Below are positions 14,769 through 38,140 of a stretch of 64,000 bases of DNA, piece after piece. The position numbers and the translations under genes are program-made. The DNA is from an uncultured Gemmataceae bacterium (lineage in GTDB: Bacteria > Planctomycetota > Planctomycetia > Gemmatales > Gemmataceae): positions 736,001-800,000 of the forward strand of contig CAVVPN010000004.1 in NCBI GenBank assembly GCA_963750165.1, written 5' to 3'. The notes under the pieces were generated by a model. That model made no database searches and was not told the origin of the DNA. It worked only from the letters and a program-made list of their open reading frames with translations. Each line of letters starts with the position of its first letter. Positions within the stretch are counted from its first letter, which is position 1.

Positions 14769-15242
14769 ATGTCGCAGCGATGGCGCGTTCCGGTGTTGCC
14801 GGTGTTGACGGTGCTGCTGGCGCTGACGGACCCGGCCTGGGGTTGCAGCGAACGCAGCACGGTCTGGCACTGGGACCACTGCTGGCTGAGCGTGCCGCGC
14901 TGGCTGGTGCTCGCCGCCGCCTGCGCCGGCTGGTGGTATCTGTGCTTCCACCGCCTTTTTCCCTGGCTGCTGGCCCCCGACCGGCCGCAGCCGCCCTGGC
15001 CGCGCGTCGCCTTCCGCCGCGCCGTGGCCCTGTTCTGGTTACTTTCCTGGGTGACGTTCGTCGCCCTGTTCGCCTGGCTGTCGGACGAACTGCTGTTGCT
15101 GTCGGCGCGGTCGCTGCCGAACCTGGGGCCGTGGCTGAGTCAGCAGGCGCTGAGCCTGCTGGTGCTCGCGGTCGGCCTCGGCGGTGCCGCCGTGCTCTGG
15201 CTCGCCGGCCGTCAACGCCGCCCCGGGATGCGTGAATCCTGA
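14769..15242 (+). CDS. Hypothetical membrane protein, first gene of the tubulin-like locus
   Basis: Signal-like N-terminus plus about 3 TM helices; stop 15 bp before the tubulin-like ATG. Confidence 0.7.
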   Translation: MSQRWRVPVLPVLTVLLALTDPAWGCSERSTVWHWDHCWLSVPRWLVLAAACAGWWYLCFHRLFPWLLAPDRPQPPWPRVAFRRAVALFWLLSWVTFVALFAWLSDELLLLSARSLPNLGPWLSQQALSLLVLAVGLGGAAVLWLAGRQRRPGMRES

Positions 15243-15257
15243 ACGAGGGAACCGGCC

Positions 15258-18200
15258 ATGACTGACACACCCCCCACCGCGCCGCCCGGCGTCCGCCATG
15301 TCGCCCCGACGGTCCTGATCGGCCTGGGCGGCACCGGCAAGGACGTGCTGTTGCGCGTCCGCCGCATGTTTTACGAGCGCCACGGCCTGCGCCCGGACGG
15401 CGGCGTCGGCTACCCGATCATCGGCTACCTGGCCCTGGACACCGACCCGGGCGCCCTGGACCGCATCGAGGGCGAGGGCGCCAGCGATTTCGTGCTGCGG
15501 GCGATCCAGTTCAAGCGCGGCGGCACCCCGGAGGCGCTCGACTGCACGGTGGCGCCGCGGCAGCTGGAAGATTATTTCCGCGGCGGCGAACAGCAGTTCC
15601 CACACCTGTTCCGCTGGCTGCCGGCGGAGCTAAAAAAGTTCGGGGCCAACGGCATCGTCGGCGGCGCCGGCCAGAACCGCCTGTTCGGCCGCCTCGCATT
15701 CTTCCACCACTTCACGCGCATCCGCGACACATTGAAAGCCCGCATCAGCCAGGTTGTCGCTGATGCCACGCTGCCCACTCGCCGCGCCGCCTGGCTGTCG
15801 GAACTGCGCACGCCGGTGGAGGTCAACCCGCAGCGCCTGGAAATCGTGCTGGTCTACTCGCTGGCCGGCGGCACGGGCGCCGGCATGTTCCTGGACATGG
15901 GCTGGCTGGTCCGCCACGTCGTCGAGCGCGAGCTGGCTCTGGCCGGCGTGCAGCCGTTCTTCACGCACTACGCGCTGCTGCCGGAGGCGTTCGTGCAAGA
16001 GGCCGCCGAGGGCCGTCGCAACGTCACGCTCAAGCCGGAGCAGCGCCGCAAGATTCAGGAGAACGCCTTCGCCTGCCTGCGCGAGATGGAGTATTTTTCC
16101 ATGGCGCCGCGGCAGGCGTTTGACCTGACCATTCCGCAGGCCGTGCCCGCCGCTGTATTCCCCCCCAAAATGGGAGGGGATACAGCGGCGGGCGGCGTCT
16201 CGGAGCCGTGGTATGGCGTGCAGTGGGAACTGGATGGCCCCGTCGTCGAAATCCACAGCTCGCCGTGGGATACGTGTTACCTGCTTGGCGGCGGCAACGA
16301 GGCGATGGGCAACCAGTGCCTGCCGCCGGCGGAGCTGTACCAGATGATCGCGGAGCGGCTGTTCCTGCAGTTCGCCGGCGGCCAGTTCGGCAGCCTGAAG
16401 GAGTCCGCCCTGAGCAACGAGGTGGACGAGACGCTGCAGGCGCTGGCCGACGAGGTGCGCGATGAGCGCGGCCAGATTTTGTATCGCCATTTCCTGAGCA
16501 AGCGCTTCAGCACCTTCGGCCTGTCGCAAATTTTCTTTGACCGCGAGCGTATGCGGCGGGCAGCGGCGCACCGGCTGGCGTGGAAGCTGGTCGCCGAGTG
16601 GTGGCTGCGGCCGGCGGACCTGGCGCCCGTGGAGTTGCAGCGGCTGGCGAAGGAGGATTTGCACGGGGGAGCCGGCGGCCGCGGCGAAGTTGTCACCGCG
16701 ACCGGCCTGGCTGGTGACAGCCCATTGTCACTGGCATACGACGCGCTGCGCGATCAGATTCTGCTGGAGGACCGCGACCAGGACCGGCATCGCACCTGGT
16801 TCCAGGTGGTTCTCGACGATGAGCAGCAGCGCCGCCGCCGTGTCGAGGAGGGCGATTTTGACACGCGCACCGAGGAAGCGATCACGCCCTTGCTGCAAGC
16901 GCACCTGCACCGCCTCAAGCGCGTCCGCGGCGCCGCGGGAGAGACGGGGCTGGCCGTCCGCAGTTTCGAGCGGCACCGCCAGCAACTCGAAGAGGAAATC
17001 GAGCGCCGCCTGCGGGCGCTGGTGCTGCACCGCCTGCAACAACTCGGCGTACGCGGCACCTTGCAGTTACTGGAGGAATACGCCAACCTGCACAAAAACG
17101 AGCTGCAAAAAGCCCAGTATTTGGCGGCGAAGAAGGCCGCGCCGCTGCCGCCCTACCCAGACCGCGTGAGCGACGCCCGCCGCCTACCGCTGGCGTACTA
17201 TGCGCGCACGGCGGTACGCCTGGAGTTGCAGCGGGCGCTGCGGCAGGTCCGGGACCACCTGCTCAAGGCGTTCCACCGCGAGGCGCTGCCGGAAATTCGC
17301 GCCTGCCTCGACCGCGTGCAGCAGCGCATCGGCCTTGACCAGCGCGAGGGTTCTTACGCCGATCTCTTGCAGCGCTTTCAATCGCTGCTGGAAGCGCAGA
17401 CCGACGCGATGTCCGGCGTGCAGCACTACCTGGCCCAGCGCTTCCGCGAGTTGCGCACGCAAGACGCCGCCCAGGAGCGCACCATCGGCCTGCTCGACCA
17501 GCTGAGCGATGCCGCCTACGACGCCCGCATCCGCCAGCTGATCGCCCCGGAGAGTCCCGGCACCGCCCTGGACATGCACGAACTCGGCCCACGTGTCGAG
17601 CGGCTGGTCTTGCAGCAACTGGCCGCGGTCGATCCGAAGTGGCAGCGCGTGCAGTCGGTCGGCGACCTGGCCCTGACGCTGCTGGCGCTGCAGCCCGCGG
17701 AACTGCCAGCGCAACCGGTCCTCGACGAACTCGCCGCCGACCTGGCCGCGGCGTGCGAGGCGCTGCTGGCGAATTTTGCCGGTGAAACCAGCGCCCTGGA
17801 GCAGTTCAACCGCGACGTGCATTTGATGCGCGTGCGGCTGGACAATTTGCGCACCTACTCGGGTTGTTTTTTGCGGCGGACGCGCGAGCCGGAGGCACAG
17901 CGGCTGGACACCGCGGCGGTACTGCGGCTGGGCGTCGCCGACTGCAAGGGCCGCGCCGCCGAGGAGTTTCGCCGTCAGGCCGAGGCCGCCGGCTCCGACC
18001 GCCAGTTGCTCGGATTGCAGTCCTTCGAGATCGATGGCGACCGCATCGTACTTTATCAGGAAAAAACCGGCCTGCCGCTGTGCTATTACTGCGGCCTGGA
18101 GACGCTGGGCGAGCTGTACGCCCGGTCGCTGCGGCAGCGCGAGACGCACCTGGACTACCACGCGCTGCGCGGCCGATTGCCGGAGGTGCGCCGGGCGCAG

Positions 18201-18917
18201 CCGGAGCGGCAGAAGCACCTGGCCCAGTGTGTCGAGCTGGCGCTGTACGGCGTCAGTACGGGCGTGTTGCGTTACGAGCAGCGTTTCGAGCAGCAGCGCT
18301 TCTGGCTGGCGGTGAAGCAGGGCTACGGCACGCCGTTGACGGTGCCGCTGGGCGGTCAGCTGGAAGAGGTGATCGCCTACCTGGCCGAGCACGCCAGCGA
18401 CCGGGCGGAGTTGCAGCGGCAGCTGGACCGCTGGTTCCAGGCCGCCGCCCAGAACGACGGTGAGGCACTGGTGCTGCTCTGGTGCGCCGTGCAGGATTTT
18501 CACGAGGACATCCGCGGGCGCGTGCAGCGGCACATCGACCAGGGCCGGCTGACGAGTTCCGAGGCCCGCCACCACCCACTGCTGGCCGTGCTGGAGCAGC
18601 GCATGCTGTCGCGCGTGCGCGAGCGGCTGCTGGGCTTGCCGGGCGGCCCAGGCTGGCTGGAGTCGAAGCTCGACCGCGGCGGTCTGGCGGCGGAGCTGGA
18701 CGGCGACGACCTCGACCAGGCCCTGCGGCTGCGGGCGGAACTGCTGCGCGACTGCTACGCGCCGCTGTCAGAGGCGGTGCCGGTGCCGGTGCTGCGTCCG
18801 GGCGCCCGGTTGGACCGGCGCGTCTTCGGCGACCTGATGGGGCCGCGCCCCGGGCCGCGGCCGGCCGCCGCGGCGCCGCTGCGGCGCTTCCAGCAGGCGG
18901 AGGATGAGTCGGTGTGA
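15258..18917 (+). CDS. Tubulin/FtsZ-like GTPase (Tubulin_2/FtsZl1-type) with long helical C-terminal region
   Basis: VLIGLGGTG, ALDTD, GAGQNRLFGR, SLAGGTGAGMFLD (tubulin signature variant), ENAFACLREM; 1219 aa. Confidence 0.9.
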   Translation: MTDTPPTAPPGVRHVAPTVLIGLGGTGKDVLLRVRRMFYERHGLRPDGGVGYPIIGYLALDTDPGALDRIEGEGASDFVLRAIQFKRGGTPEALDCTVAPRQLEDYFRGGEQQFPHLFRWLPAELKKFGANGIVGGAGQNRLFGRLAFFHHFTRIRDTLKARISQVVADATLPTRRAAWLSELRTPVEVNPQRLEIVLVYSLAGGTGAGMFLDMGWLVRHVVERELALAGVQPFFTHYALLPEAFVQEAAEGRRNVTLKPEQRRKIQENAFACLREMEYFSMAPRQAFDLTIPQAVPAAVFPPKMGGDTAAGGVSEPWYGVQWELDGPVVEIHSSPWDTCYLLGGGNEAMGNQCLPPAELYQMIAERLFLQFAGGQFGSLKESALSNEVDETLQALADEVRDERGQILYRHFLSKRFSTFGLSQIFFDRERMRRAAAHRLAWKLVAEWWLRPADLAPVELQRLAKEDLHGGAGGRGEVVTATGLAGDSPLSLAYDALRDQILLEDRDQDRHRTWFQVVLDDEQQRRRRVEEGDFDTRTEEAITPLLQAHLHRLKRVRGAAGETGLAVRSFERHRQQLEEEIERRLRALVLHRLQQLGVRGTLQLLEEYANLHKNELQKAQYLAAKKAAPLPPYPDRVSDARRLPLAYYARTAVRLELQRALRQVRDHLLKAFHREALPEIRACLDRVQQRIGLDQREGSYADLLQRFQSLLEAQTDAMSGVQHYLAQRFRELRTQDAAQERTIGLLDQLSDAAYDARIRQLIAPESPGTALDMHELGPRVERLVLQQLAAVDPKWQRVQSVGDLALTLLALQPAELPAQPVLDELAADLAAACEALLANFAGETSALEQFNRDVHLMRVRLDNLRTYSGCFLRRTREPEAQRLDTAAVLRLGVADCKGRAAEEFRRQAEAAGSDRQLLGLQSFEIDGDRIVLYQEKTGLPLCYYCGLETLGELYARSLRQRETHLDYHALRGRLPEVRRAQPERQKHLAQCVELALYGVSTGVLRYEQRFEQQRFWLAVKQGYGTPLTVPLGGQLEEVIAYLAEHASDRAELQRQLDRWFQAAAQNDGEALVLLWCAVQDFHEDIRGRVQRHIDQGRLTSSEARHHPLLAVLEQRMLSRVRERLLGLPGGPGWLESKLDRGGLAAELDGDDLDQALRLRAELLRDCYAPLSEAVPVPVLRPGARLDRRVFGDLMGPRPGPRPAAAAPLRRFQQAEDESV

Positions 18918-19045
18918 TTGTCTGGCCGGCCCAAAGTGCGAACTTGTGTATAAGTATCTATTCCGGTTACTCTACTGGGTGGTTCGGTTGGATGAGTGAA
19001 TTGCCGTCCTCGTCAGGATGGCGCGCCTTTCACAAGGAGTCTTCC

Positions 19046-20173
19046 ATGAAAGCCGTCACGCTGGTGGTGTTGAGCGGAGCCCTGTTGAGTTGGGTGCCGC
19101 AGGCGCCTGCCCAGACGGAACTGCCCCCGGCCGCGAAGAAATTGCTCAAGGAATATGAGGAGAGCATCGTCGAGCTTGACAAAAAGTACGAGGCCGAGGT
19201 CAAGAAACGCGGGGAAAAGACGACCGTGGAACTGAAGAAGGTGCAGGATCGGATGTGCAAGGAGGCCAAACTCGACGAGGCGGTGGCTGTCCGCGACCTG
19301 ATTCGCAGCATCCAGGCCGGGACCAACGAGGCCTCCGCCGCCGACCTGCCGGCCGCCGCCCGCGAAATTTACAAAGTGTATCAGGATGACACCGCCGCGA
19401 TCCTCAAGAAGGCCGAGACCGAGGTCGAGGTCCGGCGAAACCAGGCCACCGTGGGGCTGAAGCGGTTGCAGGACCTGTTGTGCAAGGAAACCAAGCTCGA
19501 CGAGGCCATCGTCATCCGTGACCTCATTCGTTCGCTTCGGGACGGGGTGACCAACACCCTGGCCGATCCGGGCTACGTGAACAACCCGGCCAACGACGTC
19601 GGCAAGGTGTTTTACTACACGGTCACCGGCGTCACCAACGGCGGCTCGATCTACGGTACCGATATTTACACCACCGGCTCGCACCTGGGCATGGCGGCGG
19701 TCCACAGCGGCGTCCTGAAAGCCGGCCAGCAAGGGGTCGTGAAAGTGACCATCTTGCCGGGCCAGAACAACTACACCGCCTCCATGCAGAACGGCGTTAA
19801 CAGTAACGGGTATGGGAATTGGGGGGTGAGCTTCAAGGTCGAACGGGTCTACGGGTTGGCGGGGAAACGTGTCAGTTCCGTCCTGGCCGACCCGGGCTAT
19901 GTGAGCAACTCGGCCAACGACATCGGCAAGGTGTTTCACTACACGGTCACCGGCGGCAACAACGGCCAGATCTGGGGCACCGGCGTCTACACCACCGGCT
20001 CGCACCTGGGCACGGCTGCGGTTCACAGTGGTGTGCTGCGAGTCGGCCAAAAGGCCATCGTGAAAGTGACCATCTTACCCGGCCAGAACAACTACATCGC
20101 CTCGCCCAGGAACGGCATCACCAGTAATGGGTATGGGAATTGGGGGGTGAGCTTCAAGGTCGAGCGGAGATAA
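19046..20173 (+). CDS. Secreted protein with two LCCL domains
   Basis: Signal peptide; two copies of I(Y/W)GT..YT.GS.L..AAVHSG...VKV...PGQ..Y.AS..NG..S..YG.W..SF. Confidence 0.85.
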   Translation: MKAVTLVVLSGALLSWVPQAPAQTELPPAAKKLLKEYEESIVELDKKYEAEVKKRGEKTTVELKKVQDRMCKEAKLDEAVAVRDLIRSIQAGTNEASAADLPAAAREIYKVYQDDTAAILKKAETEVEVRRNQATVGLKRLQDLLCKETKLDEAIVIRDLIRSLRDGVTNTLADPGYVNNPANDVGKVFYYTVTGVTNGGSIYGTDIYTTGSHLGMAAVHSGVLKAGQQGVVKVTILPGQNNYTASMQNGVNSNGYGNWGVSFKVERVYGLAGKRVSSVLADPGYVSNSANDIGKVFHYTVTGGNNGQIWGTGVYTTGSHLGTAAVHSGVLRVGQKAIVKVTILPGQNNYIASPRNGITSNGYGNWGVSFKVERR

Positions 20174-20231
20174 TCCGACCTGCGAGGCGGCGGCCGGGTA
20201 CGGTCGGGCGCGATCCAGGGAGGGCTGTCCG

Positions 20232-20366
20232 ATGGCCGTCGAGAAGGAGGCGCTGCGCGACTGGCATCGCCTGTTCGGCCTGCTCTTGACCGACTATTTC
20301 AGCGGCGCGCCCTTCGTCGTCGAAGTCGCGCGCGACTTCTCGGTCCAGCAGCAACTGCTCAGCTAA
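20232..20366 (+). pseudogene. 44-codon N-terminal remnant of a conserved hypothetical protein
   Basis: GGAGG RBS, then MAVEKEALRDWHRLFGLLLTDYFSGAPFVVEVARDFSVQQQLLS*; resembles the start of a longer family (recall only). Confidence 0.45.
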
Positions 20367-20643
20367 CCTGGGCCGTGAACCAGATCGCCGACTTTCTCAG
20401 CCGGGAGGCGGTGCGCGGATTGGATAACGCGGTTTGGCTCCGCCAGGACGCGCAGGCCCGTGACCGCTTGAACGCACGGTCGGGCCTGGTGAAGCGCATC
20501 AAAGCTCTGCACCCCACCCCGGGATCCTCTTTGTAAAAGCCACGGAGCCACCATCCTTGTCCGTGTTCCCCATCCCGTCCCAGGGCCAGGGGACTTGCGG
20601 ACGCCGCGGCGGTTGGCGAGAATACCACGCGGAGGGTCAGGCC

Positions 20644-21351
20644 ATGCCGCTGCACGATTGGACAGACGAACGGGGCTGGGACAGCGTCCATCCGTTCTGG
20701 TTGGCGTACCTCGTCGAGTGGGTGCAGCCCCGCTTGCCGGAGGGGTATCGGGCGTTCCTCGGGGGCGTGCCTGCCCTGACGGTGGCGACGGGCAACGGCA
20801 AGCCCGACGTCAGCGTTCGCCACTGGGAGCCGCGTCCGCCGACCGAGGCAGTGACAACCGATACTGCCGTCCTGGAACCGGACCTGGAAGCGAGCGTCGT
20901 CGTCCGCCTTGACCCGCAACCGGCCGTCCACGTCGATTTCCACGGGCAACTCATTGCCGCCATTGAGATCGTCTCGCCGCGAAACAAGGACCACCTCGGC
21001 GCGAAGGATACGTATGCCCAGCGCTACCTGGGCTACCTCCGCCTGGGGGTGCATTTGCTGCTCGTCGATGTGCTACCGCGGCCGAAAGACTTCTCGTTCT
21101 CCGACATCATCACGGGCAGCCTGGGGCTCGAATTGCCGCCGCTGCCGGCCCCGTTTGCTGTGGCCTATCGTGTGGACGAGGTCGTCCCGGTCGGGAGCGA
21201 CATGGGCAGCCTCGTGGGCCTCTGGCGCCGTCCGCTGCAGGTCGGCCAACCCCTGCCACCGCTGCCGCTGCCGTTGAGCGTCACTCGGGCCGTCCAGATC
21301 GATCTGGAGCAGACGTACGCACGGGCGGCGAAGCGGGCTTACCTCGATTGA
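20644..21351 (+). CDS. DUF4058 family protein
   Basis: MPLHDWT..W..H..W, AAIEIVSPRNK, HLLLVD, IDLEQTY. Confidence 0.85.
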   Translation: MPLHDWTDERGWDSVHPFWLAYLVEWVQPRLPEGYRAFLGGVPALTVATGNGKPDVSVRHWEPRPPTEAVTTDTAVLEPDLEASVVVRLDPQPAVHVDFHGQLIAAIEIVSPRNKDHLGAKDTYAQRYLGYLRLGVHLLLVDVLPRPKDFSFSDIITGSLGLELPPLPAPFAVAYRVDEVVPVGSDMGSLVGLWRRPLQVGQPLPPLPLPLSVTRAVQIDLEQTYARAAKRAYLD

Positions 21352-21394
21352 GCTGGGGCGTCGATCAGGAGCTCTTGTTGTTCAAAGGGCGCTG

Positions 21395-21545
21395 ATTCTC
21401 GACGTGTGAAAAAGTTGGCGTTCTTGGCGTCCTTGGCGTCCTTGATCGGTCAGGCGGCATCACAAAGTGATACGCCGTGCCAGCCAGGCGTTCATTCTCG
21501 ACGTGTGAAAAAGTTGGCGTTCTTGGCGTTCTTGGCATCCTTGAT
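21395..21545. repeat. Two ~50-bp direct repeats about 100 bp apart
   Basis: ATTCTCGACGTGTGAAAAAGTTGGCGTTCTTGGCGT(C/T)CTTGGC(G/A)TCCTTGAT at ~21395 and ~21494. Confidence 0.85.
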
Positions 21546-21626
21546 TAGACAGCCGTCGCCAGCCAGAGACTCCCAGCGCCAACCCGCCAGGGCAGGCAGA
21601 CGGCGACAGAAGCAGAAAGTCCCCCG

Positions 21627-24944: not shown

Positions 24945-25052
24945 CGCTTCGGGGTAGCGGAAGTCGCCAGACTTCCGCTTCAAAAAGGTTGGTAAAGCAA
25001 GGATTCCCGCCCGGTGGTATCATGCGGGGTAGTGGGTGACGCAACCTGGGAG

Positions 25053-26001: not shown

Positions 26002-26643
26002 GGCGTGCAGAAGGAAATAATTCGTCCGATGTACATCTGCTCCGCCGGCGAAGTCCAGGTTGGGCGGGCGCTTTCTGGCCAAGTTGGACGAATTATTTTC
26101 TTCCGTTCGCCTAAGTTCTCGCAGAAGAAGATCAAGGACCATTTCGCCAAGTCCGACGCGGCAACCACGAAGGCGGAGAAAGGGAAGCACCTTGAAGATC
26201 TGGCCGTCTACCTGTTCGAGATGGTCCCGGGCATCAGCCTGTCCGCCCGGGACAAGAAGAATGCCTACGAAACCGAAGAGATCGACGTGGCGTTCTGGAA
26301 CGAGCAGCACGCCAAGGGTTTCAAGGCGCTGAACTTCCTCATCCTGGTCGAGTGCAAGAACTGGTCGTCGCCTGTCGGTAGTATGGAGGTGAACTGGTTC
26401 CTCACAAAGATCAGGAACCGATCCCTGGACTTCGGCATCCTCCTCGCGGCCAATGGGATCACCGGGAGTGACGAAGACAAGAAGCAGGCACATGACGTGA
26501 TCTCCAAAGCCCTCACGGACGGCGTTCGCATGATCCTGCTGACCCGCGCCGAGATCGAGGCGCTGACCGACGGCGACGAGTTGGTCAAAATGGTGAAGCG
26601 GAAACTCTGCGAGTTGGTCGTGTCGGGTACCGTCTGGTCGTGA
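25994..26643 (+). CDS. Mrr-like restriction endonuclease, 5' end interrupted by a MITE
   Basis: KGKHLEDL..EEIDV..LVECKNW; removing 26002-26114 restores ATG GCT AAG TTC (MAKFSQKKI), overlapping the upstream stop. Confidence 0.85.
26002..26111. mobile_element. 110-bp MITE / internally deleted IS
   Basis: 26-bp imperfect TIRs GGCGTGCAGAAGGAAATAATTCGTCC / GGACGAATTATTTTCTTCCGTTCGCC, flanked by TAA duplication (25999-26001, 26112-26114). Confidence 0.88.
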
Positions 26644-26659
26644 CGTGTCGGGGGAGAAC

Positions 26660-26917
26660 ATGAAGACCCGTATTGTGGTGATCGGCAACTCGCAGGGCAT
26701 TCGCATCCCGAAGCCGCTGCTCGAACAGACGGGCCTGTCCGGGGAGGTCGAGATCAGCGCGGAGGACGGCACCCTGGTGATCCGGCCCGTCAAAAAGCCG
26801 CGGGCCGGCTGGGCGGTGGCCCTCCAGCAGATGGCACAGCGCGGCGACGACGCCCTGCTTGACGAAGCGCCGCCGGGTTTGACTGCCTGGGACGAGGGCG
26901 AGTGGGAATGGCGATAA
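26660..26917 (+). CDS. mazE: AbrB/MazE antitoxin
   Basis: IGNSQGIRIPK; upstream of PemK toxin. Confidence 0.92.
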   Translation: MKTRIVVIGNSQGIRIPKPLLEQTGLSGEVEISAEDGTLVIRPVKKPRAGWAVALQQMAQRGDDALLDEAPPGLTAWDEGEWEWR

Positions 26918-27231
26918 ACCGTTTCGAGGTCTACCTGATCAACCTCGACCCGACGGTCGGCAGCGAGATCAAGAAGACGCGGCCCTGCCTGGTCGTTTCG
27001 CCGGACGAGATCAACCACAACATCCGCACGGTGATCGTGGCGCCGATGACGACCAGGGGACAACCTTACCCGACGCGGGTGCCCTGCCGGTTCAAGGGGA
27101 AGGACGGCCAAGTGGTGCTCGACCAGATCCGGGCGGTGGATCGGTTGCGGTTGGTCAAGAAACTGGGGAGGATTGACGCCAGGACGGCGACGGCGGTGCT
27201 CGATGTCCTTCAGGAGATGTTCGCGCCTTGA
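26908..27231 (+). CDS. mazF: PemK/MazF toxin
   Basis: LDPTVGSEIKKTRPCLVVS, DQIRAVD. Confidence 0.93.
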   Translation: MAINRFEVYLINLDPTVGSEIKKTRPCLVVSPDEINHNIRTVIVAPMTTRGQPYPTRVPCRFKGKDGQVVLDQIRAVDRLRLVKKLGRIDARTATAVLDVLQEMFAP

Positions 27232-27423
27232 GCGAGAGAACTATCCCGAATCAGCCGCAAATGCCTGTCCGGTGTAGCTGGTCAGGAATTTCTTGTTTCT
27301 TCGTTGCCCGGTCCTGTACCGTGGGGAGGTTCAGATCGTGGTCGCGGCAGATTCGTGGAGCGGGAAGAAGTAGGTTGTGATGTTTGCAGCGCGGACCTCG
27401 AATTTTCATTGCAAGGAGTTACC

Positions 27424-29553
27424 ATGTCGAAATCCTCTGCGGTCGTGAGCTTCGTTCAACACCTAGCTCTCGCCCTGGCAGTCGTGCTGCCGTTGACGGC
27501 GCCCCTGGCAAACGCGGGGGAAACGAAGCTGCGAACCAAGCTTCTGGATACGTTCGAACAGGGGCACGGCAGCGTAGACCCATTTCTGCCCTCCAGCGTC
27601 GCATCGTTGGCCTTGAGTCCTGACGGAACGCTGCTGGCGACTGGGGGCGGTGATAAGACCGTCAAGTTGTGGGACGTGGCCAGGCGGCGCGTCATCGCCA
27701 CCTTGCGTGGACACGCCGCACGGGTCCGCCTGGTGGCCTTTTCCGCCGATGGCAAGACGCTCTTTTCCGCAAGTAATGTCGAAGAAAAAATCCAAAAAAA
27801 AACAAGGCTGGTCGGAATGCTCAAGCTGTGGGACGTGGCAACCGGAAAAAACTTGGCCACGTTGGAATACCCTGATGGTCACGTATCTGGGCTTGCCGGC
27901 AGCCCTGACGGTACGCATTTCGCTGTCGCAACGGGAGGCACGATCGAAATCGTGGACTTTGCCACCCGCAAGCCAATCGCTTCTTTGGGCAAGAAAAAAG
28001 ACCTAAATGCCTTTAATGGCAGTGGTGGTCCAATCGCCTTCAGCTCGGACGGTAAGACCCTGGTCGCTGGTCCCTTTGGGCTCGGGAACAACGTCAAGGT
28101 ATGGGACGTGGCCGGCCGCGAGCTGAAGGCGGATCTCCGCATCGATAACGGTGGCGCAGAGTGGACACTTTCGCTGGCCCTGAGTCCGGACGGCAAGAGC
28201 GTGGTTGCGACGCGGCCTCTTTGCATCGAGGTCTGGGATGTGGCCACCGGCAAACAAAAGCAAAAAAAGGACTTCCATGACAAGAGAGAAGAGCGCGTGA
28301 GAGGCCTTTATGTCGGCGCCGTCCTCGCCAACGACGGCAAGACTCTGGTCGGTTTCAGCCGGCCCGTAGATCGCCCACGGAAGGTCATTTTCTGGGACGT
28401 GGCCAGCCAAAAAATAACCGCCGAGTTGGATGGTGACGTCGATATCTACACGGGTGTCGCTGTCAGCAGGGATGGCAAGACGATTGCAGGCGTGAATCAT
28501 TCGAACGACGAGATCAAGGGTGAAATCGTGCAGGTGTGGGACGTGGCCCGTGCAAAACGGACGGCCCGGATGGTCGGGCGCACGTGGTACGGGGCCAGGG
28601 GTTTGTTCTTTCGCCCGGATGGCAAGGTCCTGGTGTCCACGCACGACCCCTTCTCTTTTTTCTGGGAAGTGCCCACGGGCAAGAACTTGCTCAGCTTTCC
28701 CCCCGGCCTGACCGGCGTCGCCTTCGCTTCGGACAACAAGACCTTTTTCTGCTCCGCGGGCGGCCTGAGCCGGAGCAGCCATCTTGAGCTCCACGAGTTA
28801 GCCACCGGCGAAGAACTGCGGCTGGATGAGTACATCCTGAGCCACAAAGGCATGATCCAGTGCATGGCGTCAACCCACGACGGCAAAACCCTGGCCACCG
28901 GCTCGGATGACAAGACGATCCGCATCTGGGACGTGGCCGGGCTCAAGAAGAAGAAACGCCAAGGCGATGAGGTGCTCGCCGGGTTCAAGACGGTGCAGAT
29001 TCTCACAGGCCACGCTGACGAAGTCCGTTTTGTGACCTTCAGTAAAGATGGCAAGCGGCTGGCCTCGGCGAGCACAGCGGGAGATTTCAAGCTGTGGGAC
29101 GTCGCCTCGGGCAAGGAGCTGAGCACCCTCCTTCTGGTCGAGCCGGGGAAAGAGAAAGCGGATGTTGGGGTTGGAGAGGGACGAGGCTCTCCCGTGGCGA
29201 TCAGTCGTGACTTCAAGACCGTGGCTCTGGGTACGCGGACGGGTGAGGTCAAGTTGTGGGACGTGGGCAGCGGCAAGATCCTGGCCAAGCACCAGGTCCT
29301 CAAGGGCCAGGCCGTGACGGCGCTCGCCTTGAGTCCGGACGGCAAGACGCTGGCCACTGCCGGCGGCGACAGCACGATCCAGCTGTGGGACGTGGCCAGC
29401 GGCAAGAGCCTGGCTTCGCTCAAGGCGCACACGGCCGTCGTTCACTGCCTTGTGTGGAGCCCAACGGACCCCATCCTCGCTTCGGCCGGCGCCAATGCGG
29501 ATGCCACCATCAATCTCTGGGAAATCGTCCGTCCGGAAACAGCGGACAAGTGA
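27424..29553 (+). CDS. Secreted WD40-repeat protein
   Basis: Signal peptide; many SPDG..LAT.G.D.T.KLWDVA repeats. Confidence 0.92.
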   Translation: MSKSSAVVSFVQHLALALAVVLPLTAPLANAGETKLRTKLLDTFEQGHGSVDPFLPSSVASLALSPDGTLLATGGGDKTVKLWDVARRRVIATLRGHAARVRLVAFSADGKTLFSASNVEEKIQKKTRLVGMLKLWDVATGKNLATLEYPDGHVSGLAGSPDGTHFAVATGGTIEIVDFATRKPIASLGKKKDLNAFNGSGGPIAFSSDGKTLVAGPFGLGNNVKVWDVAGRELKADLRIDNGGAEWTLSLALSPDGKSVVATRPLCIEVWDVATGKQKQKKDFHDKREERVRGLYVGAVLANDGKTLVGFSRPVDRPRKVIFWDVASQKITAELDGDVDIYTGVAVSRDGKTIAGVNHSNDEIKGEIVQVWDVARAKRTARMVGRTWYGARGLFFRPDGKVLVSTHDPFSFFWEVPTGKNLLSFPPGLTGVAFASDNKTFFCSAGGLSRSSHLELHELATGEELRLDEYILSHKGMIQCMASTHDGKTLATGSDDKTIRIWDVAGLKKKKRQGDEVLAGFKTVQILTGHADEVRFVTFSKDGKRLASASTAGDFKLWDVASGKELSTLLLVEPGKEKADVGVGEGRGSPVAISRDFKTVALGTRTGEVKLWDVGSGKILAKHQVLKGQAVTALALSPDGKTLATAGGDSTIQLWDVASGKSLASLKAHTAVVHCLVWSPTDPILASAGANADATINLWEIVRPETADK

Positions 29554-29738
29554 ATCCGTCGAGCGGAACAATCTTCGTAGTCGTGTCTGAAACAAGTCAG
29601 CATCCATGCTGATAAACGGGACGCGGACCGTTTCGGCGCGGCAACCGCAACCAGGGCCGAACCGGGAAACAAAGGGGTCAGCGTAGATTATCGAGCTTTC
29701 CCCAAAGAGTGTTGAAGTCGAGGGTGAGGAGTGCAGAT

Positions 29739-29835
29739 TCCGAACCAACCGCTGCAGCAGACCCGCCCCCCCATTGAGGTGTTGGAGATGTTCAGGTCAC
29801 TCAGGGGGGCGGGCTGCTGAGCTATGGCGTTCGGC
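29739..29835 (+). other. Integron attC recombination site
   Basis: R'' CCGAAC, 5-nt spacer, L'' GCTGCAGC ... L' GCTGAGC, 6-nt spacer, R' GTTCGG; arms GCTGCAGCAGACCCGCCCCCC / GGGGGGCGGGCTGCTGAGC pair with extrahelical G and A. Confidence 0.8.
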
Positions 29836-29952
29836 TACGCTATCAACGTGTGTCGAGATGCGAGTTGCTGGGTAGGAGAAAGGGCGCATTCAACAATTAA
29901 GAATCGGAAATGGTTAAGACTTCAGAAGTGCTCACACGAGGAGAATTCCGTC

Positions 29953-30159
29953 ATGACCTTCAAGACCGTGGAAGGCGTGCTTCATCCGGACGGCACGCTG
30001 GCCTTGCCGAAGGAGGAGTTACCGGACCATGCCGTGCGCGTCATGGTGACACTCCTGGAGGCGACCGATGACGTCGCACTGGCCGAGGTGGGCGATTACC
30101 ACGAGCAGCTCAGGGATTACGAAGAGCGATTGGCTCGGGGAGAAGTCCGGTGGCAGTGA
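29953..30159 (+). CDS. Small putative antitoxin
   Basis: 68 aa, overlaps the downstream MazF start. Confidence 0.65.
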   Translation: MTFKTVEGVLHPDGTLALPKEELPDHAVRVMVTLLEATDDVALAEVGDYHEQLRDYEERLARGEVRWQ

Positions 30160-30489
30160 AGCGCGGTGAAGTCTGGCAGGCGGATCTGTCGCCCACGCGC
30201 GGCACCGAACAATCGGGGGTCCGCCCCGTGCTGGTCGTGCAAACAGACCGGGCCAACCCGCACAGCCCCCACACCATCATCATTCCGTTCACGACACGCG
30301 TGCGAGTGAAACTTCTGCCCAGTCACGTCCTCGTCCCTGCCGGGGAAGGGGGTCTGACGCAGGACTCGGTGGCGCTGGCCGAGCAAATCCGGGTGGTTGA
30401 CCACGGCCGCCTCCTCAAGCACCTCGGCGATCTGTCGGCCACGCGGGTGCAGGAAGTGGACGACGCACTCCGCGATCCTCGACCTGTAA
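30150..30489 (+). CDS. mazF: Second PemK/MazF toxin; probable indel ~30473
   Basis: RGEVWQADL.PTRGTEQSGVRPVLVVQ, AEQIRVVD; a frame switch gives a typical ...ILDL* end at 30489. Confidence 0.88.
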
Positions 30490-30589
30490 GAAAATCAAAG
30501 AGAAAGCAAAAAGAGATCAGGTTTAGTTTACTGAAGTGAATTGGGGATAAAAAAGGGAGAAAAAAGGGGACGAGCACGAATGGGGACGG

Positions 30590-30651
30590 AAAAAGGCGAC
30601 GGGCACGTTTGTTTGTCTCAATTGTCCAAATGTGCCCGTCCCCCCCTTTTC
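30590..30651. repeat. Imperfect inverted repeat (GACGGGCAC type)
   Basis: AAAAAGGCGACGGGCACGTTT ... AAATGTGCCCGTCCCCCCTTTT. Confidence 0.6.
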
Positions 30652-30756
30652 CGCCCTTCGGAAGGGTTTGAGGAGGCGGGTAGGGCTTGCTTGGGCGTTT
30701 GACAGCCCTTCCCCTGGCCTGGACAATTCAATGTCATCGCCCGGGGAGACCATCCG

Positions 30757-30969
30757 ATGACCCCTGCACACCGCGTCGAAACCGTCCTCTCGGAAGCCGG
30801 CAAGCTGTCGCTCGACCGGCTCCCCTTCCGGGCCGGCCAGGCGGTCGAGGTGATCGTCCTGCCAGCGCCGGCCCCGGCGCCTGCTAGCCAGCCGCTCCGC
30901 GGCACACTCCTCCGCTACGACCGGCCAACCGAGCCGGCCGCCGAGGCTGACTGGGACGCCCTCCGGTGA
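30757..30969 (+). CDS. Small putative antitoxin of PIN pair
   Basis: LPFRAGQAVEVIVL...DWDAL; GTGA overlap with the PIN fragment. Confidence 0.7.
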   Translation: MTPAHRVETVLSEAGKLSLDRLPFRAGQAVEVIVLPAPAPAPASQPLRGTLLRYDRPTEPAAEADWDALR

Positions 30970-31060
30970 TCATCCTGGACACTCACATTTGGGTCTGGTG
31001 GGTGGACGGCGGTGCCCAGCTGCCCGCCGACTACGCCGCGCTGCTCCAGGCGCCTGCCGA
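30966..31060 (+). pseudogene. Truncated PIN/VapC toxin
   Basis: MIILDTHIWVWW PIN N-terminus; similarity lost after ~28 codons. Confidence 0.7.
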
Positions 31061-31132
31061 ATTCAGTTCGATGGCCAGAACCCGGCTCGTTATAATGACG
31101 TGTGGTGTCCTGGAGTTCACAGGGAGAAGGCC

Positions 31133-31342
31133 ATGTCGCTTGTCGAGGTTTTGCCGGAGGTCCAGTCGCTTTCGCGGCTCGACAAACTTCGCCTGATCCA
31201 GTTCCTTGCCCGGGAACTCGAACGGGACGACGGCGACCTGATCGAACCGGGCCGCTCCTATCCCGTCTGGTCGCCTGATCGCGCTTTCGCCGCCGCCGCC
31301 GCCCTCCTGCAAGCACTGGAGGAGGACAGAGGTAAATCATGA
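31133..31342 (+). CDS. Small hypothetical protein coupled to aspartyl protease
   Basis: LSRLDKLRLIQFLARELE; ATGA overlap. Confidence 0.7.
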   Translation: MSLVEVLPEVQSLSRLDKLRLIQFLARELERDDGDLIEPGRSYPVWSPDRAFAAAAALLQALEEDRGKS

Positions 31343-31755
31343 GCGCCCAGCCTCAGCAATTCCCCTACGTCGTGCGCGATCCGTCGCTCGGGGCCGCAAG
31401 TCTCGCCCCCATGCTGCCGCTTACCTTGATCGGAAGCCAACAGGTTCCGACGGTTGGTCTCGTCGATAGCGGCGCAGCGGTCAACGTCCTGCCTTACTCG
31501 CTTGGTGTGCAGTTAGGATTCGACTGGGCTCAGGAAACGAAATCAGTAGAACTGTCCGGCAACCTGGCCTCGGTCGAGGCCCGCATTGTGGTCTTGTCGG
31601 CGGTAGTTGGGGGTTTTCCGCAGATACGTCTGGCCTTCGCCTGGGCTAAGACGGACGCCGTTTCCGTCATCCTGGGACAGGTCAATTTCTTCTCTGAATT
31701 CGACGTTTGTTTCTTCCGTTCCCGTAGTGTGTTCGAGGTGAAGCCCAGGCCGTGA
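31339..31755 (+). CDS. Retropepsin-like (clan AA) aspartyl protease
   Basis: GLVDSGA catalytic motif and ILGQ motif. Confidence 0.75.
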   Translation: MSAQPQQFPYVVRDPSLGAASLAPMLPLTLIGSQQVPTVGLVDSGAAVNVLPYSLGVQLGFDWAQETKSVELSGNLASVEARIVVLSAVVGGFPQIRLAFAWAKTDAVSVILGQVNFFSEFDVCFFRSRSVFEVKPRP

Positions 31756-31869
31756 GGTTGGTTCTGCCGCCGTTGCTATCAATCCTGACCACGGGATGCT
31801 CATCTGCGTGACCAGCTGCCGAAACCGTTGCACCCCGGCAGCGCGAACTGGAAACAAAGGTTTCCTGAC

Positions 31870-33048
31870 ATGGCCGAGCCACCCCCTCCTCCATCTGCAC
31901 ACGCCGAACCCTGGGGCCGCTGGTCCGGCGATGGCCTGACGTTCACCGTGGACCGCGCCAGCGACGGGCAGTCCTTCCTCCCCGTGCCGGCGGCCGACCA
32001 GTCCGCGCAGCCGCCCGAGCACACCCTGGACGCGCCCACCCCGGCGGCGCTGGCCGACAATCTCCGCCAACTGCTGACCGCCGCCGACCCCGCGCTCGGC
32101 TGTCTGACGCCGCGCATGCGCGTCCGCCTCTTCCGCCACGGCCGCGAACTCGCCGCGCCCTGGGTCACGCCCACCCGCTTCGACGAGGCCCGCGCTCACG
32201 TGGACGCCTTGGGCGAACTGCTGGCCCGGACGCCACCCGCCCCGCTGAAGGACGTTTGTGCCGTCCTGGTCGCCCTCGGCCACTTCGCCGAGGAAGTTCG
32301 ACCCGTCCTCGCCAATCCGGCGGCAGGGGCGCGGCGGGACTGGGCGCGATTGCTGTTCGACAACCTCCAGACACTCGCCCAACTGGCAAGCCGGTCGCTG
32401 GAAAAGCAGACGCCACCCGCCCCGCCCCCGGACCCCGTGGACGCCGCGCTGCAAGAACTGGCCGGCCGGCACGCGCTGGCGGGACAGTTCCGGACGCTGC
32501 TCGACCTCGCCCGTGCCGTGCGGCCGCTCTGCGCCGGCCGCTGGCCGGAGGCCGAGGCGGCGGTCCAGGGCCTGCACTACCCCGCCGAGCGCTTCCGCAA
32601 ATCGGTGCTGCGTGCCGCGGCCGTCGCGCTGGATGAGCAAACGCGCCTGCTGCGCGCCGCCGGTCGCAGCCTGGCGGACGACCTGGTGAACAAGATACGC
32701 GCTTTCGACGCCCTGCTGCCAGGCAAGAGCAGCGACGGCCCGTTGCCGCCGCGGGCGCCCGTCCACCTTGGCCCGGAGGAACGCGACCGCCTGTGCCAGC
32801 AACTGCGGGCGCTGCGCGAACTGTTGCTGGCGGTCATGCGCGAGCACGGCGGCTACGACGAATACCCCGTCGCCCTGGGCGATACGGTCGCCAAACACGG
32901 CGCCGCCCTGGAGGATGTGACGTTCGTGGCGACGCCGCGGCACCGCGCCAACGTGATCTTTCAAATTCTCGAACCCGGTTACGTCCGTCGCCGCGAAGGC
33001 GGCCAGGCGGAGGTGATCCGTTCACCCCGGGTCTGCGCCGCACGCTGA
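31870..33048 (+). CDS. Protein with C-terminal GrpE-like domain
   Basis: Long helix, then LLLAVMREHG..E....G..., NVIFQILEPGY...VIRSPRV, resembling the GrpE beta-domain (V.Q.GY...LRPA.V). Confidence 0.65.
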   Translation: MAEPPPPPSAHAEPWGRWSGDGLTFTVDRASDGQSFLPVPAADQSAQPPEHTLDAPTPAALADNLRQLLTAADPALGCLTPRMRVRLFRHGRELAAPWVTPTRFDEARAHVDALGELLARTPPAPLKDVCAVLVALGHFAEEVRPVLANPAAGARRDWARLLFDNLQTLAQLASRSLEKQTPPAPPPDPVDAALQELAGRHALAGQFRTLLDLARAVRPLCAGRWPEAEAAVQGLHYPAERFRKSVLRAAAVALDEQTRLLRAAGRSLADDLVNKIRAFDALLPGKSSDGPLPPRAPVHLGPEERDRLCQQLRALRELLLAVMREHGGYDEYPVALGDTVAKHGAALEDVTFVATPRHRANVIFQILEPGYVRRREGGQAEVIRSPRVCAAR

Positions 33049-33073
33049 CCGCCTTTCGGGAGGACGCACCCTC

Positions 33074-35062
33074 ATGAGCCCGCGCCGGTTCTGCTGCTGC
33101 CGGCCGGCCGGGCCTCCCTGGCCGACGCGACCCGACGACCGCTTCTGCGGTCAGTGCGGCCGCGAACTCCTCGCCGTGCTGCCGTTCGCTCCCGTCCTGA
33201 CCGCCGGGCCCTCGCCCGTCCTGGCCGCGTATCTGCAACCCGCCGCCCGCTCGCCCCTGGCCGGGCAGCGTTTCCTGACGGGCCGGCTGATGTTGCACCT
33301 GGTCGGCATCGGCGACGCACTCCCGCGCGTCCGCGTCCGGCCGGTCGTGGAACCCGCGCCGCGCCTGCGCTCCGCCCGGCTGTCCGGCCACGCCACGCTG
33401 CAACTCCTCCTGGAAACGTCAGTGGCGACGCCCGTAGCGGCCACGGCGCTCGGTCGCGCCGCGGTCACGGTGGAACTGCACGGCCACGCTTTTTGCCTGG
33501 AAGTGCAGGCGTTCTGCCCTCCGCTCGCCGCCGGGGAACTGCACCTGGAGGTGGAGCGCGGCGGCGCGTTCGCGGACGGCGTGCTGTGGCTGGAGCGCGG
33601 CGGGTCGCTGGTCCGCACGCGGCTGCTCTACACGCCGGCGGGACAGGTGCCGGTGCAGTGGCAGAGCCTGGAGTGCCGGCACCCGGCGGTACGCATGGAG
33701 TTGGTGGGCGAAGTTGCCGCGACGCCGCGGGCCGAGGCATTGGTGACCTGGGATCCCACCTTGCTGCGCCTGGACGAGTCGGGCGAAGAGGTGCTGTTCC
33801 ATCTCCGGCTGCGCGGCCTGCCGCGCCTGGCGTACCCTCTGACCGTGCGCCGCCGCCAGCCAGACGCCCTGCGCTTCCGGCCGGGCGTGCTGCACGTGCC
33901 TCATCAGCCCGCGGAACGCCTGCAAACCCATCTGGTGCAGTTGACCAACACCGACGCCAGCCCCGTGATCGTCGAGCGCGTGGAAGCCTTGGCGCCGTGG
34001 ATCGCCGCGGCGCCGGCGGTGCCGCTGCCGTTCGCGCTGCACACCGGCGACGAGGCCATCCTCACCCTGGACCTGCGGCCCGACCGCCTGCCCGCTGTGC
34101 TGCCTGCCGATGGCGCCGTGGCGGTGGACGTGCGTGACCGCGGCCGGCAGCGGTTGGCGGTGCGCGTCGAGGCGCTGGAGCCGTTGCGGCGCCTGCCCGG
34201 CCCGTTGCTGGTGGACCCGGGACCGCCGCGGGTCGTCCTGGCTTACTGGGACCGCTCCCGGCGAGCGCTGGTGTACCCCGACCGCCACGGCGACGCGGGG
34301 CTGGAGCCGGAGGAACTGGGTCTGACAACGGACGAGTACGCGGCCGCGGTGTACGGCCGGCTGCCCGCTCATTCGCTGGTGCGCTTCCTGGTGGCCGCGG
34401 TGCTGGCGTACTGTCGGCGGCGGTTGCACCTCGACGCCGCGGCCGTGTGCCTGTGCGGCCATCCGTGGGTACCGGCCGACCTGGCGCTGCCGGGCGTGGA
34501 GGTCCACGATTGGTGGCGCGCCGCGGCCGGCGTGGGCGGCGCCCTGTCGCCGGGGACTCCAGTGGTGCGGCTCGACACCTGGGACTGCCGGGCCGTCAGC
34601 GGGGCGGACTTGCCCTCGCTGCGGGCGGCCGTCGTCCGTTGGCTGAGCGTGACCGGCGCGGCTGCCGGTAGTGAGCACGACGCCCCCGGCTGGTTGGAAT
34701 TGGCTTGTGAGAGCCTTTTTGTCGATTACCGCTGGGGGGCGGATTACGCCTGGCGGCGGTTGCAGCGGGCTTGCTGGCGTCACCAGCCCGCGAGCCGGCC
34801 GGCGTTGCCCGTGCCAGCCCAGGCGGATCGGATGCTGGCTCACGCCACCGCGGAAGTGTTCAGCAGGCTGGCGCAACTGCTGGATCCCCTGCCGCGGCCC
34901 GACGGGGCCGCCACGGTCGTGCTCGCGCCCCTGTTCGCCAACTGCCGCCTTGCCCGGCTCGGGGAAGCTGCCGCGACAGCTGCCGGACAGAAGTGGGTAT
35001 GCACCGCCCCGGCCTGGCTGGAGGGCCTGGCCCGATTGCGGGAGGGTGATGGCGACCGCTAG
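33074..35062 (+). CDS. Zn-ribbon + Ig-like protein with probable degenerate Hsp70-like C-terminus
   Basis: DDRFCGQCG matches DDRHCGLCG of the 21627 protein; Ig-like V.LTN...V.V...PWI; RLPGPLLVDPG aligns with RLGSPVAIDWG. Confidence 0.6.
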   Translation: MSPRRFCCCRPAGPPWPTRPDDRFCGQCGRELLAVLPFAPVLTAGPSPVLAAYLQPAARSPLAGQRFLTGRLMLHLVGIGDALPRVRVRPVVEPAPRLRSARLSGHATLQLLLETSVATPVAATALGRAAVTVELHGHAFCLEVQAFCPPLAAGELHLEVERGGAFADGVLWLERGGSLVRTRLLYTPAGQVPVQWQSLECRHPAVRMELVGEVAATPRAEALVTWDPTLLRLDESGEEVLFHLRLRGLPRLAYPLTVRRRQPDALRFRPGVLHVPHQPAERLQTHLVQLTNTDASPVIVERVEALAPWIAAAPAVPLPFALHTGDEAILTLDLRPDRLPAVLPADGAVAVDVRDRGRQRLAVRVEALEPLRRLPGPLLVDPGPPRVVLAYWDRSRRALVYPDRHGDAGLEPEELGLTTDEYAAAVYGRLPAHSLVRFLVAAVLAYCRRRLHLDAAAVCLCGHPWVPADLALPGVEVHDWWRAAAGVGGALSPGTPVVRLDTWDCRAVSGADLPSLRAAVVRWLSVTGAAAGSEHDAPGWLELACESLFVDYRWGADYAWRRLQRACWRHQPASRPALPVPAQADRMLAHATAEVFSRLAQLLDPLPRPDGAATVVLAPLFANCRLARLGEAAATAAGQKWVCTAPAWLEGLARLREGDGDR

Positions 35063-37029: not shown

Positions 37030-38140
<1,111 letters not shown>

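Follow-up and report, generated by a model that had tools for sequence, protein, structure and literature searches.

Genes of the window and their counterparts in other genomes

The subject of this analysis is a set of five plus-strand genes within a 64,000-nt window of the genome of an uncultured Gemmataceae bacterium (G000), predicted to encode a small membrane protein, a tubulin-like GTPase of the FtsZl1 type, an Hsp70 ATPase, a GrpE-like factor and a second Hsp70-related protein, here termed pseudo-Hsp70 (Table 1). Other genomes carry labels from G0xx to G6xx, and loci fetched for comparison, such as the metagenome contig L032, carry L labels. Four of the open reading frames (ORFs) were confirmed at the coordinates given in a first-pass annotation of this DNA, as were gaps of 15 nt between the membrane protein and tubulin genes and of 25 nt between the GrpE-like and pseudo-Hsp70 genes; the Hsp70 stretch, previously presented as one ORF, was found to run through three frames. 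Unrelated genes, spanning 2.7 kb and 6.9 kb, divide the system genes into blocks; the inserted genes have a GC content of 61–63% (61% for the second insertion) compared with 69–74% for the system genes, and gene maps revealed neither insertion in the intact operons of other genomes.

Table 1. Components of the system in the window, followed by the two insertions that lie outside it
Feature	Coordinates	Strand	Length (aa)	Basis
Small membrane protein	14769..15242	+	157	ORF, hydropathy of orthologues, position upstream of the tubulin gene
FtsZl1-type tubulin-like GTPase, Tubulin_2 at aa 19-445	15258..18917	+	1219	Pfam, 17 full-length homologues
Zn-ribbon/Ig-like/Hsp70 ATPase with lidless SBD-beta-like end, three frames	21627..24944	+		tblastn to intact orthologues, profiles, hhalign
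Divergent GrpE-like factor with an additional helical domain, a helical bundle and a beta domain at the C-terminus	31870..33048	+	392	hhalign, PDB sequence, Foldseek, complex model
Pseudo-Hsp70: Zn ribbon, three Ig-like domains, motif-less actin/Hsp70-fold domain	33074..35062	+	662	hhalign, predicted structure
Insertion 1: LCCL-domain protein, DUF4058 protein, two repeat copies at 21388-21584	18918..21626			Pfam, blastn
Insertion 2: TIR-like, Mrr-like nuclease, MazE-PemK, WD40, second PemK pair, small ORFs, aspartyl protease	24945..31869			Pfam

The five genes, although scattered, are retained members of an FtsZl1 operon that comprises six to seven genes in Gemmataceae-like Planctomycetota. 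In L032 the membrane protein, tubulin, Hsp70, GrpE-like and pseudo-Hsp70 genes are contiguous in the order seen in the window and are followed by a gene for a protein with a von Willebrand factor A (vWA) domain, which bears out the earlier proposal of an ancestral operon and answers the neighbourhood check suggested with it. Six-gene operons, comprising genes for a Zn-ribbon protein, the membrane protein, the tubulin, the Hsp70, the GrpE-like factor and a vWA-Ig protein, are present in G510, G558, G571 and G627, the last of these having intergenic distances of -4 to 56 nt; in G628 and L035 five operon genes were recovered before the contig breaks off, and in L034 four, and the operon of G567 is split between two contigs. 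Loci L025, L031 and L033 duplicate others and were left out of the counts. The first-pass list of five genes therefore stands as regards membership of the system but is incomplete, since the vWA-Ig and Zn-ribbon genes, which in G000 are displaced to another contig (at G000:C11:372203-376799, in three frames, and at C11:686307-687959, respectively), had been overlooked. The operon of G012 is likewise scattered, being found in three places with unrelated flanks and with its Hsp70 ORF intact, and all seven genes are retained in both G000 and G012 despite the scattering.

The distribution of the system was examined in 252 genomes of the family, representing 90 genera, with profiles for the Hsp70 (E-values no higher than 1e-25) and for the tubulin (no higher than 1e-45). 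Both profiles matched an identical set of nine genomes from five genera. The vWA domain was found in eight of the 252 genomes, all among the nine carriers, and was absent only from G477, which is 82% complete; the Zn-ribbon protein is present in all nine. The carriers are related and not independent, so that these counts do not constitute a statistical test of co-occurrence. The pseudo-Hsp70 gene was found in two family genomes (G000 and G012) and in L032, and because these three form a single branch of the Hsp70 tree the protein is a subclade addition. Those homologues that bear names are assigned to Gemmataceae or Gemmatales, on which the taxon given here is based, and four tubulin/Hsp70 homologue pairs and one Hsp70/pseudo-Hsp70 pair come from records with equal longest contig, an indirect sign of further such loci.

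The system is rare and conserved. Comparison of G627 with G628 revealed purifying selection on four genes, with ratios of nonsynonymous to synonymous substitution (dN/dS) of 0.04–0.10, and a ratio of 0.42 for the GrpE-like gene; the latter (L133:11854-12990 versus L130:9276-10388) shows 78% identity, compared with 96–99% for the other operon genes, with changes extending into the helical bundle. Ratios for G000 versus L032 and for G558 versus G567 were unreliable owing to saturation and GC bias and were not used. The spacing of the blocks in the window, together with the three separate places occupied in G012, might suggest that the five genes are unrelated neighbours and that the Hsp70 and GrpE genes are an ordinary stress chaperone set. 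Same-order contiguity in L032 and in four GTDB genomes, and the identical presence pattern, stand against this view, which we regard as having next to no chance of being correct and as refuted by the contiguous operons.

Predicted components of the system

The 1219-aa protein matched Pfam Tubulin_2 with an E-value of 1.6e-49 (169.5 bits against a cut-off of 27) and no other Pfam family, and its 17 full-length homologues (34–62% identity) keep GLGGxG, DTD, GAGQ and SLAGGTGAG, which we take to be counterparts of the FtsZ nucleotide loops. The FtsZl1 family is characterised by a coiled-coil middle part and a helical C-terminal domain and by the lack of FtsZ_C. In the present protein a long C-terminal region follows the Tubulin_2 domain; Atlas feature matches for residues 440-1219 were to Tubulin_2 clusters with a score of only 0.82, a lead at this level, and a search of PDB sequences with the tubulin alignment profile returned nothing significant. 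The protein has no kinase fusion and differs in this respect from the FtsZl1 of Planctomycetes, which is reported as kinase-fused in the available portions of PMC2875224 (Makarova and Koonin 2010). Two further Tubulin_2 genes of G000, at C3:674348-678022 and C12:986081-990020, have N-termini that appear kinase-like when read by eye, as in the type reported for Planctomycetes, the C12 copy changing frame.

The first-pass annotation had hinted that the system might substitute for FtsZ in the division of FtsZ-less Planctomycetes, and in keeping with this PF00091 was unmatched in G000, which is 93% complete, as against matches in 13 of 14 control genomes. A canonical FtsZ would be expected to carry PF00091 and FtsZ_C and to be near-universal in its lineage, however, whereas the present protein matches only Tubulin_2 and occurs in nine of the 252 genomes. 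Moreover, a different and widespread Tubulin_2 group of ∼1200 aa is weakly matched in most relatives (51 of the 61 genomes with any match), sometimes as tandem pairs. A division role is excluded because the tubulin is too rare, and the hint can hardly be credited.

Upstream of the tubulin gene, the small membrane protein is predicted from the hydropathy of its orthologues to have a signal-peptide-like N-terminus and then approximately three hydrophobic segments. It matched no Pfam family, and in the Atlas only unnamed clusters with scores below 0.9, but in L002, L026, L032, L034, L035, G510, G558, G571, G627 and G628 its orthologue is encoded by the gene immediately upstream of that for the tubulin. 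The vWA-Ig proteins, of 1500–1670 aa, have an N-terminal hydrophobic segment, DVSxS and TDG motifs, a single membrane segment near the C-terminus and a tail rich in proline, and their gene is linked within the operon in L032, G510, G558, G567, G571, G627 and G628, with weak Pfam VWA matches in three of five. For the Zn-ribbon protein Pfam yielded no match to a beta-propeller. Both the end of the tubulin (encoded at 18845-18917) and those of vWA proteins (L128, L130, L135, L137 and L138) are proline-rich and bear the short acidic-aromatic motifs FRFTEDYD, DDLF and DPF, which are possible docking sites.

The assignments made earlier for the remaining three proteins hold. The best PDB matches of the Hsp70 profile are to DnaK (E 2e-14), and hhalign aligned it with DnaK (99.6%) over the ATPase domain, the linker and the beta part of the substrate-binding domain (SBD-beta), as far as DnaK position 478 of 650, an alignment by which the protein is taken to carry a divergent SBD-beta-like domain. 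The nucleotide motifs DWGTTNS, DFGGGT and LAGGGCRLP are present in the window pieces and kept in most of 26 homologues; NCBIfam searches of the window proteins gave weak DnaK/HscA matches to the Hsp70 piece and no match to a system. Since the protein ends ∼65 residues beyond the last aligned DnaK position, the helical lid is absent, and a Zn-ribbon/Ig front end of ∼450 aa precedes the ATPase domain. The same ribbon, of the form DDRxCGxCG, had been noted as linking the two halves of the locus, and it is indeed found in both proteins, as DDRHCGLCG in the Hsp70 and DDRFCGQCG in the pseudo-Hsp70, which are paralogous over the ribbon, the Ig region and the first ATPase strand (hhalign 98%, E 2.5e-13).

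The predicted structure of the pseudo-Hsp70 (predicted local distance difference test score, pLDDT, of 81) matches actin-fold ATPases over both lobes at residues 372-662, with Z scores of 11.6 for Alp7A (root-mean-square deviation, rmsd, 3.9 over 236 aligned residues), 10.8 for FtsA and 10.7 for Ssz1, while DPGPP replaces DWGTT in all ten aligned rows. The best structural matches of its Ig domains are sandwiches of the ASH/PapD/MSP type, and Foldseek with the whole model returned Ig-repeat proteins only. Comparison with the DnaK profile by sequence gave no match, and the assignment therefore rests on paralogy and fold.

For the GrpE-like protein, hhalign against canonical GrpE gave 96.2% (E 2.4e-9, 107 columns) with a null result for the reversed control, GrpE was the top PDB sequence match (E 0.002), and GrpE was also the top Foldseek match, with a probability of 0.97 but an E-value of 0.034. 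The modelling of an Hsp70-GrpE complex, suggested as a check in the first-pass annotation, was carried out with an orthologous Hsp70 ATPase domain and GrpE-like protein. The complex scored 0.77 compared with 0.00 for the best of three controls, with runs agreeing on at least 58% of contacts and a partner pLDDT of at least 76; the mark applied is reached by 116 of 157 solved pairs and 2 of 215 mismatched pairs. Binding between the Hsp70 and the GrpE-like protein is supported by this model, although the pass may reflect likeness to the solved DnaK-GrpE pair. That pair (PDB 1dkg, 4ani, 3a6m, 5obx) resembles the present one in its nucleotide motifs, linker, SBD-beta, GrpE helical bundle and beta domain and in the modelled complex; it differs in having the lid, in lacking the long front end and in having one long GrpE helix, whereas the single-chain model of the GrpE-like protein shows its helices folded back. 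Gene maps and Pfam revealed no J-domain gene in the intact operons.

Integrity of the locus and neighbouring genes

Three-frame translation and tblastn placed shifts of frame in the Hsp70 stretch near 21866-21869 and near 22989-22995, whereas orthologues are unbroken ORFs of ∼1030–1170 aa, and the displaced vWA-Ig gene of G000 likewise carries two frame breaks. As a control, 140 ORFs from 400 kb of G012 were compared with G000, and counts were taken from the 75 that matched over 200 residues with an identity of 50% or more. Twelve of these showed a change of frame, the 14 changes per 104,856 aligned bases being equivalent to 0.13 per kb; in a smaller first test four of 28 genes were broken, the Hsp70 gene itself among them. 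At the control rate 2.25 breaks would be expected in the seven system genes, compared with four observed (P 0.19), and the two in the Hsp70 gene have a P value of 0.07. The best DnaK match in G000 is itself split into two adjacent pieces. Across G000 as a whole, coding DNA shows an apparent frame break roughly every 7.5 kb, and split genes in this genome call for caution.

Because the frequency of breaks fits the assembly background, the breaks in the Hsp70 and vWA genes are probably assembly errors. The alternative is that the system is decaying in G000, the insertions having broken the operon and the Hsp70 and vWA genes being true pseudogenes in a relic cluster. Such decay would be in line with the paired breaks in both genes, with the window GrpE-like protein being ∼170–240 aa shorter at its N-terminus than its closest orthologues, with the loss of Hsp70 ATPase motifs in the close relative P0040 and with an internal deletion in the pseudo-Hsp70 P0023. 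However, the pieces of the broken genes are free of in-frame stops and keep their catalytic motifs whole on either side of the breaks, the best DnaK match is broken as well, and in G012 the operon is scattered yet the Hsp70 ORF is intact; decay is consequently considered improbable.

An intergenic repeat, in two copies 99 nt apart, lies just 5' of the Hsp70 gene and has 222 blastn matches genome-wide; it may be related to the insertions that split the operon. A different tandem repeat is located between the GrpE-like and pseudo-Hsp70 genes of G012. A promoter scan found nothing 5' of the five genes. Within the second insertion, a gene with TIR-like/nucleoside deoxyribosyltransferase-like features is coupled at 3 nt to the Mrr-like nuclease gene (25036-26643), a possible small defence pair that has no PADLOC match. 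Cassettes resembling toxin-antitoxin modules occur at 26660-27231 and 29953-31755 and consist of MazE-PemK, a small ORF with PemK, and a small ORF with the aspartyl protease, together with a small ORF holding a short fragment that we presume to be PIN-like and that has no Pfam match. Beyond the system genes, two adjoining paralogous ORFs on the minus strand (35372-36112 and 37030-37890) contain long Gly-Met-Gly repeats, share the ending VLGRGF and match no Pfam family, and an amino-acid permease gene at 11732-13723 encodes an unusual charged, coiled-coil-like insertion of ∼100 residues in mid-protein.

Relationship to described systems and possible function

Comparisons with published systems refer to the available portions of the papers concerned. 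Counting the displaced vWA gene, the window system is a variant of the FtsZl1-vWA operons of PMC2875224, where the prediction was that FtsZl1 forms the core of machinery for membrane remodelling. The systems have in common an FtsZ-like domain at the N-terminus, with a GGGTG(S/T)G-type loop, in a protein of ∼1200 aa, an exported or membrane vWA protein with an intact motif of the MIDAS (metal-ion-dependent adhesion site) type, membrane partners and predicted membrane remodelling. Among the usual FtsZl1 partners named in the first-pass annotation, vWA is present in the operons, whereas the P-loop GTPase and protein kinase are absent from the intact operons here, as is OmpA/MotB, all three being frequent if non-obligatory partners in PMC2875224. 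The suggestion that the combination was undescribed did not hold in full, since the supplement of that paper lists a vWA-FtsZl1-GrpE neighbourhood (Cagg_1315) and a vWA-FtsZl1-vWA-vWA-Hsp70 neighbourhood (amb2961), with genes annotated as GrpE and DnaK; its main text, as available, leaves Hsp70 and GrpE partners undiscussed. Hsp70 and GrpE were thus already known singly beside FtsZl1, and it is their joint presence, with the Zn-ribbon/Ig front end, the pseudo-Hsp70 and the Zn-ribbon protein, that differs from the published operons.

A second resemblance is to the conflict systems built around GAP1-N2 and DO-GTPases (PMC7159879; Kaur et al. 2020), where tubulin with vWA, and HSP70 with GrpE and a second HSP70 lacking the peptide-binding domain, are described as non-overlapping themes, with reports of both from actinobacteria and firmicutes. 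The likeness extends to zinc ribbons, repeated beta-sandwich domains, membrane proteins and the inclusion of Planctomycetes among the hosts, that to the second-HSP70 theme being limited to G000, G012 and L032. Here, by contrast, the tubulin and HSP70 themes share one operon. The DO-GTPase systems include a component with fibronectin type III repeats; the repeats found here are Ig-like, with ASH/PapD/MSP sandwiches as their best structural matches. The intact operons contain no GTPase ORF other than the tubulin, hence no DO-GTPase, and the components scanned gave no Pfam match to GAP1, although the same library did detect bpX models of PMC7159879 nearby. Because these core genes are absent, the relationship is one of resemblance and not membership. 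A literature search found no paper on the tubulin/Hsp70/GrpE combination, although supplements of PMC7159879 may list such neighbourhoods, and no experimental study of any FtsZl1 protein; the available portions of PMC9871819, PMC6952346 and bioRxiv 10.64898/2026.10.19.760177 contain nothing on the operon, and the supplements of the last may also list such neighbourhoods.

Searches with the Hsp70 piece also detected remote Ig-fused Hsp70s elsewhere in the phylum, in 27 of 400 other genomes. Among 30 loci fetched (L066-L095), a gene for a dynamin-like GTPase adjoins that for the Hsp70 in 20 (three of these supplied the profile and belong to Pfam Dynamin_N, and one match is weak), a Tubulin_2 gene is present in two, both are present in none and neither in eight, several of the eight being cut by contig ends. 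As in the present operon, a gene for a polymer-type GTPase lies directly upstream of the Ig-fused Hsp70 gene and is followed by GrpE-like and exported vWA genes; the sister clusters differ in carrying a dynamin-family GTPase in place of tubulin, and kinase and FGE-sulfatase genes in addition. Examples at L067:1236-14181 and L076:5914-18466, from other Planctomycetota, comprise a kinase, a dynamin-family GTPase, Ig-Hsp70, GrpE-like factor, two vWA proteins and an FGE-sulfatase protein, and the Hsp70s of such clusters end in a conserved PFSGxH motif. No published description of kinase-dynamin-IgHsp70-GrpE-vWA clusters was found in the literature search. A GrpE-like profile from the dynamin-type loci missed the window protein in hmmsearch (E 0.07) and aligned with it at 77% in hhalign. 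Since a dynamin or Tubulin_2 gene adjoins Ig-Hsp70 with GrpE-like and vWA genes following, a polymer-type GTPase occupies the same slot in both; in a quick Hsp70 tree of 46 rows the ten Gemmataceae-type tubulin-linked proteins form one group with the deep branches unsettled, and a single tubulin/dynamin swap is therefore not shown.

These features suggest a membrane-anchored machine in which a receptor-coupled tubulin, with an Hsp70 cycle of its own, would drive envelope remodelling, a reading based on the predicted proteins to which we give about an even chance. The exported vWA-Ig protein would act as an outward-facing receptor by binding something outside the inner membrane, and the membrane proteins would provide the GTP-binding tubulin-like protein with an anchor or a nucleation point on the inner face. 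The lidless Hsp70 may be an ATP switch dedicated to assembling or stripping the tubulin polymer; the lack of a lid, the Ig/Zn-ribbon front end and the lack of a J-protein in the operon argue against a general chaperone. The GrpE-like protein would reset the Hsp70 and the pseudo-Hsp70 would be a non-catalytic cofactor, the output most likely being local, accessory remodelling of membrane or envelope at the site of the receptor.

Several observations weigh against this reading. FtsZl1 may not polymerise according to PMC2875224, and the catalytic T7 loop of FtsZ was not recognisable in the tubulin-like protein. As regards the GrpE assignment, Pfam GrpE left the window protein unmatched and gave weak, below-cut-off matches in three of 32 homologues; GrpE ranked 36th in VIA-align (Z 7.8, rmsd 3.5, 106 aligned); a whole-genome search for the GrpE-like protein under a stricter filter found it in two of 252 genomes and none of five carriers; and the divergent genes that occupy this slot in six other genomes were linked to the GrpE-like protein only through profile comparison with hhalign (97.6%). 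The shortened window protein, the lost motifs of P0040 and the P value for the Hsp70 breaks, given above, belong with these points.

The same machine could alternatively serve biological conflict, the vWA-Ig protein sensing a phage or rival and the Hsp70 switch freeing tubulin polymerisation that would block spread or kill the cell. A role of this kind was proposed for the tubulin and HSP70 themes in PMC7159879, which names the presence of inactive copies of enzymes as a hallmark of these systems, and it would suit the patchy spread of the system and the fast evolution of the GrpE-like gene. In addition, the operon of G510 is flanked by a defence-type gene (a PADLOC NsnB/PDC-M55A-like ATPase), bpX1 and bpX3 lie a few kb from the operon in G571, defence-type genes occur in the window, and the dynamin partner of the sister systems matches PADLOC LeoA. 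Conversely, the intact operons are without a nuclease, NADase or pore effector, PADLOC 2.0 matched none of nine window proteins and none of nine orthologous components, there is no DO-GTPase or GAP1 gene, and the core genes and vWA receptor are under strong purifying, not diversifying, selection. Retention of all the scattered genes in G000 and G012 would fit long residence better than a mobile island, and toxin-antitoxin genes, being found near the displaced Zn-ribbon gene also, may simply abound in G000. A conflict role is accordingly rated as unlikely, if worth keeping in view.

Less probable still is a receptor-triggered membrane coat, proposed by analogy. Hsc70 uncoats clathrin; here the vWA-Ig protein would recruit a tubulin polymer that bends the inner membrane or causes it to invaginate, and the lidless Hsp70, GrpE-like factor and pseudo-Hsp70 would strip the coat, the same Hsp70/GrpE/vWA chassis driving a dynamin-family GTPase in other Planctomycetota. 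The MSP/ASH-like Ig domains of the Hsp70 might then dock on the acidic-aromatic tails (FRFTEDYD, DDLF) of the tubulin and vWA proteins.

That tubulin and dynamin seem to replace each other at one position of the gene order suggests a role in the shaping of membranes, be it in uptake, in contact or in defence. For the preferred reading, of a receptor-coupled machine for envelope remodelling, the operon offers a compact and complete inventory of six components, which several genomes keep intact and which includes a predicted tubulin-fold GTPase, actin-fold ATPase and exchange factor. If the Hsp70 cycle does control the polymer, the system would represent a dedicated chaperone-driven cytoskeletal switch in bacteria that have an unusual membrane biology and no FtsZ.

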